This document shows, piece after piece, positions 38,362 through 41,355 of a stretch of 64,000 nucleotides of DNA. A program made the position numbers and the translations under genes. This stretch comes from a bacterium. GTDB taxonomy: Bacteria; Electryoneota; JAOADG01. The notes below the pieces were generated by a model. It worked only from the letters and a program-made list of their open reading frames with translations. It ran no database searches and was not told the origin of the DNA. Each line of letters begins with the position of its first letter. The stretch's first letter is position 1. The stretch lies in NCBI GenBank assembly GCA_963681965.1, contig OY820579.1:2048001-2112000 (forward strand), given 5' to 3'.

Positions 38362-41355
38362 ATGACTTTCCGCCATCGCAGATTTCCACAATCAATGCTC
38401 GCCTTCGCGACGACTCTTATCTTCGTCTTCACAATCCTTCTTCCGCAAATTTCCTACGCCGTCTCGGTACAATCTTCGCGTCTTCCCCACCCTTTCCAGT
38501 TTACCGAGAACAAGGGGCAGTGGGATTCTGCCGTCCTCTATAAATGCGAGGTGCGACGCGATGGTTTCACCTGGTTCCTTGAGCGCGATGGTGTCACCCT
38601 CGTCACTTCCGCAATCGATTCCTCCTCTGTCATTGCGAAGGCGCCGAATGGCGCCTGTGGCAATCCACTCTTTTCAACTTTTCCCAACACCCAATCCCTC
38701 CCACCCAACTCTTATTCTATTGGTGGCGCAGGCCTCCGAGCCTGCGATCCTCTTGTGTCTGGTAAATTCCCCCTAAAATCTCACGCCCTCAAATTTAAAT
38801 TTGTCGTCTCCCGTAGGGGCGAATCGCAAAGTGCTCGCCGAAGGCAATCGCATTCGCCCCTATCTGTTCAAGATGCTCTCACTTGTCGTTGCGAGGAACG
38901 CAGCGAAGGATCGTCCGCCGTAGGCGGAAAGCCGCAGCGAAGTGACGAAGCAATCTACTCTTTTAAAGATTCAATGATACAGGAGGAGATTACCTTCGGT
39001 GAGCCCTTCGGGATTGCTTCGTCATTCCACTTCGGAAGTGCTTCGCACGTTCCTACGTTCATTCCTCGCAAAGACAAAATCAGGATTCAAGATACAAGAT
39101 TAGGGCGTATGCCATACGCCCCTACAGAAAAATATTCGACACAAGAGGATGTCGGAATAAATTCCGACCTACGAAAATACACTTGCGCGAAATGGATTGA
39201 TGCACAAGGTGAACGATCGTGGCATAACAATTATTTCCTCGGAAATGATTCCTCGAAATGGGCACCGGATTGCCGCAATTTTACACGCGTGGTGTATCAT
39301 GAGGTGTGGGAAGGCATCGACGTCGAGTGGTATGAGAGCAAAGGTCATCTCGAATTCGATTTCGTCGTCCATCCCGGTGCGGATCCCAAGCAAATTAAGA
39401 TGGTGTGTGAAGGGTTGGATGCGCCGATAGCAGGCGGAGGACGGACACTCTTGTCCGTCGACTCAGATATTTCTGTCACAAAAGGGAGTCGGACAGGAGT
39501 GTCCGACCTCCACTTATCGAATGAACTTTCGCTTCCCACCTCCCTCGGCGAACTCCGGATGTCAATTCCGGGGGCATACCAAACCACCTCCAACGGCACC
39601 CGCGGAAACGCTGTCACAGCACAATTCAGACTCGAGACAGGAAATGTCTTCGCCATCGATTTGCCGAATGGCTACGATGCATCACAAACGCTGAGAATCG
39701 ATCCTTTGGTGTATTCAACGTATTTGGGAGGAAGCGGAGGTGATCGTGCTGAGGCAATTGTAAGTGATCGAGTTGGGGGTACAGTTATGACTGGTCATAC
39801 ATCCAGCACCGATTTTCCCACGACTCCCGGAACGGGTGATCCCAGCGCTAATGGATATTCAGATTGTTTTATAGCAAAGATAGATTCAATAGGATCGAAT
39901 CTATTGTATGGTACTTATCTGGGGGGAAGTTACCACGATGAAGGGATGAGTGTCGATTACTACTTGGATGGCAGCATCTTAGTAACAGGTGAAACCCAAA
40001 GTCAAAACTTCCCAGTGACCGCCAACAGTCGTCCCTTCATGGGAAGTAGAAATGCATTTGTCACAAAAATTGGGACTAGTGGAAGCAATCTGGTATACAG
40101 TATTTTACTGGGTGGTGTAGGCATTTCTCTGGGTGATTGGGGTGAAACGATTTTGGACGATGGTTCAGGAGGTTGTTATGTTGCCGGTTTTACGGACAGC
40201 CCCAACTTTCCTACAACTTCGATCGACACCACCCTGGGCGGTGAAAGTGATGGTTTCATAACGCATATTGGGCAGACCGGACTTCTCTTTGCGAGTACCT
40301 ATTTAGGGGGGAGTGGGGGAGATTTTATTACTGATGTGCGAATTTCCTCCGATAGCAGTTTGTATGTATGCGGTTTCACGAATAGCAATGATTTCCCTAC
40401 AACACTTAATGCTTATTCTACAACACTGCATAGTACAGCCGATGAAGCTTTTATTGTTAAAATGAATATTACTTGTACTCAATTGATGCTAGGCACTTAC
40501 CTAGGTGGGGGAGCGCGAGATGGCGCTAGCTCACTTAAGGTAATGTCTGATGGAAGCATTGTTGTTGTGGGAACAACAGCCAGTCCTGATTTTCCAGTTC
40601 AAACTGTTTCTTTTGACACAATTTTCAATGCGCAAGTGAAAGGATATATAGCGATCCTGTCCAGTAACTTATCCACACTGCTTGCGAGCACATATTTAGG
40701 TGGAAATACCATTTCGAATTGCATGTCGTTGGACATCTCCCAAAACGGAAATTTAACCATCTCTGGAATAACCACCAGTATTAACTTTCCTACCACATCC
40801 AATGCTTTGCAGAGAGCGAGTGGAGGGTTGCGTGATGGTTTTTTCGCAGTCATGAATCGATCTTGTTCTCATCTGCTTTACAGCAGTTACTTGGGTGGTT
40901 CGAATGATGATGAATGCTATGCCCACTACTTAAAGGATTCAAATAACGTCGTACTAACTGGATGGACAGCTAGCTCGAATTTTCCACTTACTCCAGGGAG
41001 TTTCGACACCACATACACCGCATACACCTCCTTTCTCACCAATCTTCAATTTGAACCCGAAGTTTCGGTTATCAATGTGCCCCCTCTTCCTGTTAGCGAA
41101 AGACTGCTTTACGCTTACCCCAACCCCTTCAACTCCACCACCACACTTTCCTACATCCTCCCGATCACCTCTCACGTCGATCTCCGTCTCTACGATCTGA
41201 CCGGTCGCGAAGTCTCGACGCTGGTGCAACGCGAGCAGCACGCCGGAACGTATCGCCTACTGCTCGATGGTTCACGCTTAGCGAGTGGAACCTATTTCGT
41301 GCGGTTGCAAGCGGGAACATTTTCGAAGACACAGAAGATCGTGTTGTTAAAGTAG
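38362..41355 (+). CDS. Secreted SBBP/beta-propeller repeat protein with T9SS/FlgD-type C-terminal domain and in-frame repeat-derived insertions
   Basis: Signal peptide, FTENKGQW, NYFLGND..KW, EFDFVVHPGADP, IDPLVYSTYLGGSG followed by several STYLGG...G.T.S.DFPTT repeats, and YPNPFN...SGTYFVRL...KIVLLK. Confidence 0.88.
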   Translation: MTFRHRRFPQSMLAFATTLIFVFTILLPQISYAVSVQSSRLPHPFQFTENKGQWDSAVLYKCEVRRDGFTWFLERDGVTLVTSAIDSSSVIAKAPNGACGNPLFSTFPNTQSLPPNSYSIGGAGLRACDPLVSGKFPLKSHALKFKFVVSRRGESQSARRRQSHSPLSVQDALTCRCEERSEGSSAVGGKPQRSDEAIYSFKDSMIQEEITFGEPFGIASSFHFGSASHVPTFIPRKDKIRIQDTRLGRMPYAPTEKYSTQEDVGINSDLRKYTCAKWIDAQGERSWHNNYFLGNDSSKWAPDCRNFTRVVYHEVWEGIDVEWYESKGHLEFDFVVHPGADPKQIKMVCEGLDAPIAGGGRTLLSVDSDISVTKGSRTGVSDLHLSNELSLPTSLGELRMSIPGAYQTTSNGTRGNAVTAQFRLETGNVFAIDLPNGYDASQTLRIDPLVYSTYLGGSGGDRAEAIVSDRVGGTVMTGHTSSTDFPTTPGTGDPSANGYSDCFIAKIDSIGSNLLYGTYLGGSYHDEGMSVDYYLDGSILVTGETQSQNFPVTANSRPFMGSRNAFVTKIGTSGSNLVYSILLGGVGISLGDWGETILDDGSGGCYVAGFTDSPNFPTTSIDTTLGGESDGFITHIGQTGLLFASTYLGGSGGDFITDVRISSDSSLYVCGFTNSNDFPTTLNAYSTTLHSTADEAFIVKMNITCTQLMLGTYLGGGARDGASSLKVMSDGSIVVVGTTASPDFPVQTVSFDTIFNAQVKGYIAILSSNLSTLLASTYLGGNTISNCMSLDISQNGNLTISGITTSINFPTTSNALQRASGGLRDGFFAVMNRSCSHLLYSSYLGGSNDDECYAHYLKDSNNVVLTGWTASSNFPLTPGSFDTTYTAYTSFLTNLQFEPEVSVINVPPLPVSERLLYAYPNPFNSTTTLSYILPITSHVDLRLYDLTGREVSTLVQREQHAGTYRLLLDGSRLASGTYFVRLQAGTFSKTQKIVLLK
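38626..38748 (+). repeat. In-frame copy of repeat unit A within the CDS
   Basis: 123 nt (41 codons, SVIAKAPNGACGNPLFSTFPNTQSLPPNSYSIGGAGLRACD); about 90% identical to 37789-37914 outside the first hairpin. Confidence 0.85.
38813..39172. repeat. Nested REP/palindrome cluster inside the CDS
   Basis: GTAG-REP 38813-38862; large inverted repeat 38884-39076; inverted REPs 39102-39125 and 39151-39172, both ending in CTAC. Confidence 0.85.
39436..39511. repeat. GGAG-type REP doublet inside the CDS
   Basis: GGAG-GACGGACA-ctct-TGTCCGTC ... GTCGGACA-ggag-TGTCCGAC-CTCC. Confidence 0.8.

Follow-up and report, generated by a model that had tools for sequence, protein, structure and literature searches.

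How did a gene for a predicted secreted protein come to hold more than a hundred codons of nested palindromic repeats without losing its reading frame? A preliminary description of this locus reported a REP doublet enclosing a 193-bp palindromic element, and proposed that several successive insertions had been filtered for preservation of the frame. In the present study, the window (the whole 64-kb stretch of DNA analysed) was compared with paralogs of the host gene and with related loci, which are labelled Caldithrix, Zixibacteria or 'bacterium' and come from a set of at least 79 loci in a scan of genome collections, a set that does not include the window's own genome.

The host protein and the nest in loop 2

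The nest lies inside one gene.

38362..41355, + strand: host gene, 997 aa, with a hydrophobic N-terminus, a DUF7948 domain, an SBBP beta-propeller and a T9SS type A C-terminal sorting domain

This gene is unbroken from its start to the sorting domain. Pfam identified PF25778 (DUF7948, E 8.7e-42), PF06739 (SBBP) and PF18962 (T9SS tail), and the NCBIfam model TIGR04183 scored 45.7 bits over a cut-off of 23, which assigns the tail to the T9SS type A sorting domains; the signal peptide at the N-terminus was recognised by inspection. The domain order and motifs are those of other DUF7948/SBBP-repeat/T9SS-tail proteins. The gene has its ribosome-binding context in common with loci L006, L009 and L024, and scans for promoters (3 vs 4.2) and terminators (8 vs 4.7 +/- 2.4) remained at chance level. 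In the AlphaFold model of the host protein, pLDDT falls below 50 only at three loops, a linker and parts of the N-terminal 42 residues. The DUF7948 domain of a near-empty homolog is predicted to fold at pLDDT 94.8 and shows a modest similarity to galactose-mutarotase-like beta-sandwiches (best Z 9.1, rmsd 3.6-3.9, 149-162 residues aligned), with no Foldseek match at E <= 0.001; a structure search with the full host model returned beta-propellers, CylK being the best, and carries no information on the loops. The domain matches 31,153 clusters at E <= 0.001, and distant members are compact (median 219 aa), whereas domains of more than 300 aa were observed solely in the close clade. The suggestion that the segment is repeat-derived and absent from homologs was supported: the domain spans 192-266 aa in 86/86 measurable distant homologs (158 examined) and 399 aa here, and an equally long conserved segment was not found in homologs free of the repeats.

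The second of the three loops contains the nest, whose parts are as follows.

38803..39186, + strand: loop 2, a repeat mosaic of 128 codons at a beta-hairpin turn within the DUF7948 domain
38813..38859, + strand: left outer GTAG REP, 8-bp stem and 27-nt loop
38867..38874, + strand: 8-nt direct repeat around the inner dimer, with a second copy at 39086-39093, 219 nt (73 codons) apart
38884..38956, + strand: left CGTC-like REP with a TGTC tag and, in its loop, a hairpin module between 10-nt direct repeats (38899, 38933)
38957..39010, + strand: inner-dimer spacer, in which 4-nt direct repeats (38988, 39012) enclose a 24-nt double-hairpin module
39011..39076, - strand: right CGTC-like REP, matching L005:13632-13696 at 82% over 67 nt (E 2e-10)
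39103..39125, - strand: right outer GTAG REP, 8-bp stem and 3-nt loop, with a near-identical REP at L009:10336-10359
39151..39172, - strand: third GTAG REP, 8-bp stem and 2-nt loop, with a related intergenic copy at 38199-38220

All of the coordinates first given for the nest were borne out. The outer GTAG arm at 38813 faces an inverted arm ending at 39125 (14/16 positions complementary), 38884-38900 pairs with 39060-39076 at 15/17 positions over a span of 193 bp, 38943-38955 and 39012-39024 are exact reverse complements, and the further REP ending at 39172 is the third unit, on the minus strand. The 193-bp span stands as described; its reading as a single palindrome does not, as the element is a head-to-head dimer of two CGTC-like REPs. 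The nest is therefore composed of a GTAG REP pair enclosing a CGTC-like REP pair, with a third GTAG REP beside them. Both outer arms are complete hairpins in themselves (for example, 38814-38824 pairs with 38852-38862); the arms pair with each other in the minimum-energy RNA structure, and in DNA folds each arm also folds alone. Of the features expected of a MITE (terminal inverted repeats, a target-site duplication and an empty site), the inner dimer has 17-nt inverted ends with the 8-nt direct repeat 9-10 nt outside them; this repeat is either a target duplication or a shared spacer motif, and none of the 24 paralogs has a matching empty allele. The loop of the left outer REP contains a 24-nt module flanked by 7-nt direct repeats (38822, 38846), and the stem end of the right outer REP is a direct repeat of 38851-38862, 262 nt apart. 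Several parts have relatives elsewhere: the left outer REP has a related intergenic copy at 41553-41601, the inner-dimer spacer matches 41563-41579 exactly over 17 nt, and the left CGTC-like REP has relatives in L004, L005 and L006. Compared with intergenic copies in L005 and L006, the right CGTC-like REP carries a 1-nt deletion and one substitution, and the latter eliminates a stop codon from the frame in which paralogs P0008 and P0012 are read. An NCBIfam scan of the insert at E <= 10 returned no family.

Loop 2 has 128 residues, compared with 21 in the shortest paralogs, and lies at the turn between strands 70-79 and 86-99 in the model of the near-empty homolog; its residues 152-268 have pLDDT below 50. 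Between the motifs flanking the loop, the host protein has 141 residues, whereas P0021 and P0128, the close relatives with the least filled loop, have 17, giving about 124 extra codons, in agreement with the earlier estimate of about 120. The absence of in-frame stops was likewise confirmed: over 38803-39180, the frame of the gene has 0 and the other five have 3-7, and 21/2000 dinucleotide shuffles of the segment are stop-free in frame. The open frame alone is nevertheless modest evidence, since the non-coding REP arrays flanking the gene also hold stop-free frames (141 and 117 codons).

The segment 38813-39172 folds strongly as RNA, as had been expected (-138.2 kcal/mol, z -6.5, 0/100 shuffles as good), and the inner 193 bp do so as DNA (z -5.9, 0/200 shuffles as good). 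This folding, together with a role proposed for REPs in mRNA stabilisation (Di Nocera et al. 2013, PMC3733652), might suggest that the nest is kept for its RNA structure, affecting mRNA stability or ribosome speed, or that it is removed from the transcript. We regard this as very improbable, and the earlier proposal that mRNA structure modulates expression was not supported: the two strands fold alike (-138.2 vs -139.0), the structure is located 450 nt into the coding sequence, the site holds from one to five hairpins among near-identical paralogs, and no Rfam family (0/4227) matched in the window at the gathering threshold. GNA-triloop mini-hairpins (6 in the 378 nt of the insert vs 38 in 60.0 kb) point instead to single-stranded DNA structure, and UUCG loops with a 3-bp stem were not encountered in the insert. 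Removal from the transcript would make the preserved frame unnecessary; an intron was rejected on the basis of this frame and the modular variation, and a CRISPR-like array was rejected because there is no regular repeat-spacer period.

Other loops, gene flanks and the paralogous series

Repeat mosaics were also found in the other two loops and on both sides of the gene.

37700..38233, non-coding: upstream REP mosaic array, with three CGTC-like units on the + strand, GTAG units and a 124-nt tandem duplication
38617..38778, + strand: loop 1, a second in-frame mosaic with a CGTC-like REP, a 7-nt tandem tract and a degenerate REP
39418..39531, + strand: loop 3, a third in-frame insert with an inverted pair of hairpin repeats (39436-39511)
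41352..41704, non-coding: downstream REP mosaic array, the first GTAG of which overlaps the stop codon

The segment 38626-38756 of loop 1 is an 84% copy of intergenic 37789-37922 (E 9e-37), and one CGTC-like unit of the downstream array is inverted relative to the upstream ones (24/25 complementary). Residues 96-135 in loop 1 and 359-381 in loop 3 have pLDDT below 50 in the AlphaFold model. Of 16 REP matches in the window, 14 lie in or beside the host gene: 6 in the 1.2 kb of the domain, 0 in the 1.7 kb of the propeller and tail, and 8 in 1.2 kb of gene flanks, compared with 0 in 53.7 kb of other coding sequence and 2 in 6.3 kb of other intergenic sequence, a contrast inflated by a CGTC search pattern drawn from the host locus itself. 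In a related genome (11 loci), the corresponding matches are 17 in 7.3 kb (domain), 0 in 5.3 kb (propeller and tail), 6 in 4.0 kb (flanks), 3 in 44.7 kb (other coding) and 2 in 4.0 kb (other intergenic). Related genomes have the same three loops filled with other repeats, including 7-nt tandem tracts.

At least 24 paralogs, apparently from one genome, form an allelic series at these three N-terminal loops, which vary from 34 to 91 (loop 1), 21 to 128 (loop 2) and 23 to 86 residues (loop 3), while the protein outside the loops measures 534-559 aa. At loop 2, five copies have a single REP, corresponding to the third GTAG REP here, seven have the outer pair without the inner dimer, three have the full nest, and four paralogs have the inner dimer without the left outer REP. 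The 24-nt module of the left outer REP is missing from P0002, P0011, P0017, P0122 and P0123. Protein matches to the insert, among 183 candidates, were paralogs of the host family in 13/13 cases, although absence in a search of this kind is weak evidence; with no homolog found outside the family and near-neutral substitutions, a conserved functional insert was rejected.

The intermediates in this series agree with the idea of successive insertions. In its strict form, in which transposition at the host locus led from a single REP to a doublet and then placed the 193-bp element in the spacer, each step being filtered for frame, this idea would also explain the 8-nt repeat bracketing the inner dimer, and it finds parallels in a similar dimer that P0028, which belongs to a different contig set, carries in loop 3, and in the insertion of REPINs into REPINs described for intergenic clusters (PMC3116915). 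However, the junctions do not resemble a clean insertion into the known emptier allele, whose 8 spacer residues differ wholly from the 9 residues after the inner dimer here, and the repeat bracketing the dimer partly coincides with a spacer motif also found next to REPs at 41410 and in L005. Moreover, the full nest is common to P0001, P0002 and P0003, whose propellers are distant, and the inner dimer and the right end of loop 2 show all four gametes (P0001, P0002/3, P0005 and P0006), a pattern that needs recombination. Strictly successive transposition is therefore distinctly unlikely, and recombination between paralogs appears to have built and spread the nest allele. Consistent with this, identity among 19 intact copies (171 pairs) is 89% (84-93) in the domain core and 43% (30-94) in the propeller, which, together with recombination among loop parts, suggests that the nest is a gene-conversion patchwork and not only a stack of insertions. 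P0002 and P0011 have sister propellers on short branches, yet their loops 1 and 2 differ. Paralog junctions and conversion tracts were read from peptides, not from DNA, and counts of changes on the core tree were left out because the tree is largely open (13/20 forks).

The proposed filtering for frame was supported, in a leaky form: at least 25 in-frame changes in loop length were counted among the 24 paralogs, compared with 3 copies broken at loop 2. One paralog, P0123, reads exactly as the frame-shifted product of a collapse in which the two outer REPs joined at their direct-repeat arms, with 13/13 residues compatible, whereas the best of 2000 random pairs reached 5. That 5/24 paralogs are broken overall, and that P0121 and P0008 are offset by a single base at a short run of T, which could be a sequencing error, might raise the question of an assembly artefact or a dead gene. 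We find this scarcely credible, as P0002 and P0003 also carry the nest, with substitutions, the same loops are filled in independent genomes, and the host gene is intact.

Relation to known repeat systems

In-frame REPs in genes are already known: Di Nocera et al. (PMC3733652) described GTAG- and CGTC-tagged REP superfamilies, including intragenic copies mostly of 20-30 codons, with clusters of 43-82, in many unrelated genes and often in those for DNA repair. The present elements share with them the tags at the outer ends, the 8-bp GTAG stems, the head-to-head dimers, the in-frame genic copies and the occurrence of both types in one genome. The three units at 38813, 39125 and 39172 have the unpaired GTAG and a stem within the 5-13 bp of that superfamily, and the outer arms form its head-to-head dimer, also known from REPINs. 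Loops of 3 and 2 nt fall within the 2-20 nt of the superfamily; the left unit reaches 27 nt owing to its 24-nt module, which five paralogs lack. The inner units have the tag and dimer arrangement of CGTC families 1-4, with TGTC at 38884 (+) and 39076 (-) facing inward. Instead of stems of 8-9 bp starting from a paired A-T, loops of 4-5 nt and a short tail, these units measure 73 and 66 nt, have long branched loops and show a mismatch at the first position of each stem. They are classed as CGTC-like and, on the family descriptions (PMC3733652), were not assigned to the four CGTC families. The locus differs further from those described in that source by having about 124 codons at one site and 254-268 residues in loop 3 of the relatives P0027 and P0028, by interleaving both superfamilies, by CGTC-like loops far above 4-5 nt, and by its setting in one family of secreted proteins.

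Three other systems are comparable. First, REPINs (Bertels and Rainey 2011, PMC3116915), which were described from DNA outside genes and associated with RAYT genes, likewise consist of two inverted REPs and a spacer forming a long hairpin, and form clusters by insertion into or beside existing REPINs. By contrast, the present nest is coding, inside a 997-aa frame, with related units also in the non-coding flanks, and no RAYT was seen in the window. Second, Rickettsia palindromic elements (Ogata et al., reviewed in PMC10969869), of which RPE-4 and RPE-6 are CGTC elements (PMC3733652), are about 150 bp long, encode a conserved peptide in unrelated genes, and are palindromic repeats fused in frame with predicted compatibility with the fold. 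Here too the frame is open and the host domain is predicted to remain intact around low-confidence loops; unlike in that system, the peptide is a variable mosaic restricted, among its protein matches, to paralogs of the host, and other coding sequence of the window is free of REP matches. Third, Neisseria NIME arrays (dRS3 and RS elements) lie between genes and exchange sequence with incoming DNA (PMC1797815), and dRS3 is a CGTC-1 element (PMC3733652). Both systems are dynamic mosaics of palindromic repeats and spacers; NIME arrays lie beside variable surface genes and have been proposed as promoters of exchange, and the present arrays flank a predicted secreted gene with mosaic paralogs. Instead of 20-bp dRS3 repeats flanking RS spacers between genes, GTAG and long CGTC-like units are found here, partly intragenic, and exchange apparently occurs among paralogs. 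The locus is thus a case of the repeat invasion already known from bacterial genes, but larger and more focused, on the loops of about two dozen secreted-protein genes; the literature search found no precedent for the size of the insert or for this concentration in the loops of one family.

Origin of the nest and its meaning

Herein, we propose as the probable explanation that the nest is selfish DNA tolerated by a permissive protein loop, and that recombination among the paralogous genes did most to build and spread it. First, three turns of the DUF7948 beta-sandwich would accept long unstructured inserts while the domain folds, as comparison and the model indicate. Second, GTAG- and CGTC-type REPs would have seeded the loops and gene flanks, as known REP biology suggests, moved probably by a tyrosine transposase or other nuclease encoded elsewhere and acting in trans. 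Pfam found no RAYT-type or GIY-YIG gene among 78 ORFs of the window and close loci (the likeliest real genes chosen from 119 listed, plus a few longer ones), an HUH motif had no match in the window or in the at least 79 loci scanned, and no transposase was found in the 64-kb window. Separately, one DUF559 gene was observed in a more distant locus, L014. Third, gene conversion would homogenise the N-terminal halves of the paralogs, as seen at the protein level, copying loop alleles between loci and splicing parts of different alleles, while short direct repeats would gain or lose 24-nt modules and REP arms would recombine with one another. Finally, selection would hold the frame open, as the statistics indicate, so that products in frame persist, whereas those out of frame show up as the few broken copies. 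Most likely, the roughly 120 additional residues are translated and amount to neutral filler within an exported protein. Loop substitutions look near neutral (50% with a negative BLOSUM score vs 53% expected); neutrality of the peptide is tentative, because loop and core do not differ significantly in radical substitutions (50% vs 39%, P = 0.35).

Neutral tolerance as the sole cause would not account for REPs being about 15 times rarer in other intergenic DNA of the window, which is equally free. An alternative is a selected diversification system, in which REP arrays are kept as recombination hot spots that reshuffle the loops and propellers exposed by a surface family, in defence, for instance, against phages or predators, as has been proposed for NIME arrays but here within coding sequence, with frame breaks as possible on/off switches. 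The clustering of REPs in the flanks and loops of the host family in two genomes, the independent filling of the same three loops with different repeats, the reported location of NIME arrays beside variable surface genes (PMC1797815), and the layout of a conserved N-terminal half with divergent propellers, as expected of exchange, are in accord with it, and the reading frame of L004 is shifted by one nucleotide modulo 3 over a 7-nt tandem tract (148 nt) in loop 2. However, loop substitutions look neutral and not diversifying, 15/20 copies have one loop-3 length, conversion between paralogs gathers repeats even where variety is not selected, the scan of 78 ORFs revealed no dedicated recombinase, the related loci L001 and L004 have no flanking REPs, and surface exposure is a prediction. 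We therefore consider such selection unlikely. Equally doubtful is the wider claim that an uncultured lineage has domesticated REPs as a generator of coding diversity, in which arrays in loops and flanks trigger conversion among paralogs, possibly started by REP-specific nicking of single-stranded hairpins, and thereby shuffle loops of 20-270 residues and whole propellers and switch genes on and off by frameshift; if true, domesticated REPs would provide surface variation without silent cassettes or reverse transcriptase.

On the favoured reading of tolerated selfish DNA spread by recombination, the locus offers a natural within-genome allelic series of REP gain, nesting, collapse and exchange, in which selection for frame can be counted, as intergenic REPs do not allow. 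It extends the size of repeat-derived peptides in bacteria from the 43-82 residues given in PMC3733652 to about 120 in the host protein and about 250 in relatives, and marks three insertion-tolerant turns in the very large, uncharacterised DUF7948 family. Moreover, if the arrays drive exchange, they would form an intragenic counterpart, open to testing, of the hypothesis put forward for Neisseria NIME arrays.

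Structure of the nest and of its host protein

The preliminary description reported nested REPs, small palindromic repeats with a terminal tag, in frame within a coding region at 38813-39172. All of its coordinates match the sequence, and the nest occupies loop 2 (38803-39186) of the N-terminal domain of the following host gene.

38362-41355, + strand: host gene, 997 aa, with DUF7948, SBBP repeats and a T9SS type A sorting domain
38813-38859, + strand: left outer GTAG REP, head-to-head partner of 39103-39125
38884-38956, + strand: left CGTC-like REP of the inner dimer, a head-to-head pair enclosed by the outer GTAG REPs
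39011-39076, - strand: right CGTC-like REP of the same enclosed pair
39103-39125, - strand: right outer GTAG REP, head-to-head partner of 38813-38859
39151-39172, - strand: third GTAG REP, 3' of the outer GTAG pair

The strong folding that had been anticipated was borne out for the 360-nt nest (z -6.5 against shuffles, 0/100 as good), and the inner 193 bp folded as DNA gave a z of -5.9, with 0/200 shuffles as good. The RNA fold energy is alike on the two strands (-138.2 and -139.0), and an RNA role for the nest is judged very improbable. Within the repeat units, three modules of 24 nt and one of 34 nt each lie between direct repeats of 4-10 nt. In addition, GNA-triloop mini-hairpins, motifs whose unusual stability in DNA is described in the accessible text of PMC13037366, number 6 per 378 nt of insert (3 on each strand) versus 38 per 60.0 kb elsewhere.

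The AlphaFold model of the host protein (88 sequences), whose signal peptide was assigned by inspection, has pLDDT below 50 at residues 1-7, 28-42, 96-135, 152-268, 359-381 and 900-922. Repeats gave rise to the stretches 96-135, 152-268 and 359-381, which correspond to loop 1 (an 84% copy of intergenic 37789-37922), loop 2 (the nest) and loop 3 (an inverted repeat pair). A near-empty homologue is predicted to form a beta-sandwich (pLDDT 94.8), in which site 2 is a turn linking strands 70-79 and 86-99; structurally, it most resembles galactose-mutarotase-like sandwiches, with modest Z scores of up to 9.1.

Reading frame and mosaicism among paralogs

In line with the preliminary description, the host-gene frame contains no stop over 38803-39180, and each of the other five frames holds 3-7. 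Of 2000 shuffles, 21 were stop-free, a modest test because the non-coding repeat arrays beside the gene also contain open frames (141 and 117 codons). Among loci having the N-terminus, loop 1 is in frame in 24/24 (12 lengths) and loop 2 in 21/24 (11 lengths, from 21 to 128 residues); all 20 loci that extend to loop 3 keep it in frame (5 lengths). Sequence comparison thus supports the proposed filtering for frame, with at least 25 in-frame loop length changes versus 3 in-loop breaks across 24 paralog loci; under a binomial model with two thirds of changes breaking the frame, the probability is 1e-9, a value for events that are not independent and include 24-nt modules in frame by nature. Compared with intergenic copies at two other loci (L005 and L006), the right CGTC-like arm carries a substitution that deletes a stop in the frame of paralogs P0008/P0012 together with a 1-nt deletion responsible for the frame of the window gene; these changes fit repeated frame filtering, with only two copies compared.

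The protein search returned 19 full-length paralogs (query counted) and 2 C-terminal fragments, with 5 N-terminal fragments among 17 short matches; these copies and fragments probably belong to one genome. Broken paralogs are a lower bound, and P0169 resembles one more fragment. All 13 matches to the insert peptide, among 183 candidates, are paralogs. The complete nest occurs in 3 paralogs, and the chance that it is an artefact appears very small.

Successive insertions had been proposed as its origin. Partial states do exist as alleles: 7 paralogs have the outer pair but no inner dimer, 4 have the inner dimer but lack the left outer REP, and 5 have the third REP alone. An 8-nt direct repeat, with copies 73 codons apart, brackets the inner dimer, and an original insertion is therefore possible; no matching empty allele was found among the paralogs. 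The window allele, however, proved a patchwork when paralog peptides were compared, and a nest built by successive transposition alone is improbable. The loops are mosaic in the sequences compared. P0001, P0002 and P0003 have the nest in common and distant propellers (the SBBP part), P0002 and P0011 have sister propellers and differing loops, and all four combinations of the inner dimer and the right end of loop 2 exist. The 19 intact copies (171 pairs) share 89% identity in the loop-free core and 43% in the propeller. The stem ends of the outer REPs are directly repeated, 262 nt apart in the window gene, and paralog P0123 reads as a deletion between such ends that shifts the frame (13/13 residues compatible; random pairs reach at most 5, 2000 tried).

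The insert is presumably translated, and it may be neutral: radical amino-acid changes amount to 50% in shared loop alleles versus a neutral expectation of 53%, and to 39% in the core versus 51% expected, the loop-core difference not being significant (P = 0.35).

Distribution of REPs in the window and in other genomes

REP matches by region, found with a CGTC pattern derived from the window locus, which favours the contrast (window; related genome, loci listed)
Domain: 6 in 1.2 kb; 17 in 7.3 kb
Gene flanks: 8 in 1.2 kb; 6 in 4.0 kb
Propeller and tail: 0 in 1.7 kb; 0 in 5.3 kb
Other coding: 0 in 53.7 kb; 3 in 44.7 kb
Other intergenic: 2 in 6.3 kb; 2 in 4.0 kb

In both genomes the matches cluster in the domain and beside the gene. 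In 11 related-genome loci among the matches listed, the same loops hold different GTAG and CGTC-like REPs, together with 7-nt tandem tracts. Loop 3 reaches 254 residues in P0027 and 268 in P0028. The 54 loci listed, mostly Bacteroidota, gave 1 REP match in 39 kb of domain. The domain family comprises 31,153 clusters. The homologue comparison agreed with an insertion, the domain measuring 192-266 aa in 86/86 measurable distant members (158 examined). Sequence comparison shows that the turns tolerate added length.

Several further observations were made in other genomes. In L004:2204-2351, loop 2 (148 nt) is out of frame across a 7-nt tandem tract; losing one unit would give a multiple of three, therefore slippage or assembly error may be involved. 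In P0025, P0027, P0032, P0129, P0130 and P0133-P0135, from another genome, loop 2 is occupied by peptides of 7-residue periodicity, which 7-nt tandem repeats would be expected to encode, and loop 3 by REP-like peptides of up to 254 residues. REPs or REP-like peptides also occur in loop 1 of L057:5213, P0074, P0076 and P0182 (Zixibacteria-labelled or similar), which suggests that these distant homologues used this turn independently. A DUF559 gene (L014:105-488, E 1e-32) and a homologous gene are about 7 kb apart.

Within the window, the upstream REP array includes a 124-nt tandem duplication (37951-38198, 89% identical). CGTC-like units at 37990-38014 and 41602-41626, inverted and 24/25 complementary, enclose the whole gene and resemble a REP-flanked cassette; L001 and L004 are without such flanks. 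Lone intergenic GTAG-type REPs lie at 19221-19253, 27000-27023, 27120-27148 and 49728-49759, and translation of the one at 27000 gives peptides that several paralogs carry in loop 1 and, when reversed, in loop 2. A second T9SS-tail gene (47254-49641, + strand), whose 795-aa product has an M14-like peptidase match, is free of internal REPs; a single GTAG REP lies 90 nt downstream. The adjoining BshC-like and PIG-L (BshB-like) genes at 44028-46164 (+ strand) suggest bacillithiol synthesis. A 238-aa ORF (27984-28700, - strand) matches DarT weakly (Pfam, E 3e-7); the genes beside it have SIMPL and thioredoxin-like matches, and no DarG-like partner was found among the adjacent ORFs scanned.

Known repeat systems and a proposed origin

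By the definitions in the accessible text of PMC3733652, the GTAG units of the nest are REPs, the left one with a loop of 27 nt, longer than the 2-20 nt range owing to a 24-nt module. The inner units behave like CGTC REPs but have stem and loop sizes outside the four families. Intragenic REPs reported there span 20-30 residues, up to 43-82 (Additional file 3 may bear on size). REPINs have been defined, and insertion into pre-existing REPINs noted, in PMC3116915. RPEs are located in unrelated Rickettsia genes (reviewed in PMC10969869), and NIME arrays have been proposed to promote exchange of adjoining surface genes (PMC1797815); going by the accessible text of these sources, the whole nest is neither an RPE nor a NIME. 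A literature search covering few subscription journals found no report of an SBBP or DUF7948 family in which REP mosaics are restricted to the loops.

Herein, we propose, as a fairly probable account, that selfish REPs would first land in insertion-tolerant turns, that gene conversion between paralogs would then multiply and recombine them, and that selection would retain the open frame. Seeding would presumably require an enzyme; the 78 ORFs scanned included neither a RAYT nor a GIY-YIG gene. A selected role of the REP arrays in diversification, which would account for REP clustering in gene flanks, is considered unlikely. That the repeats serve as a diversity generator is likewise doubtful. 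The nest itself is real, and the phenomenon to which it belongs is wider than the preliminary description reported.
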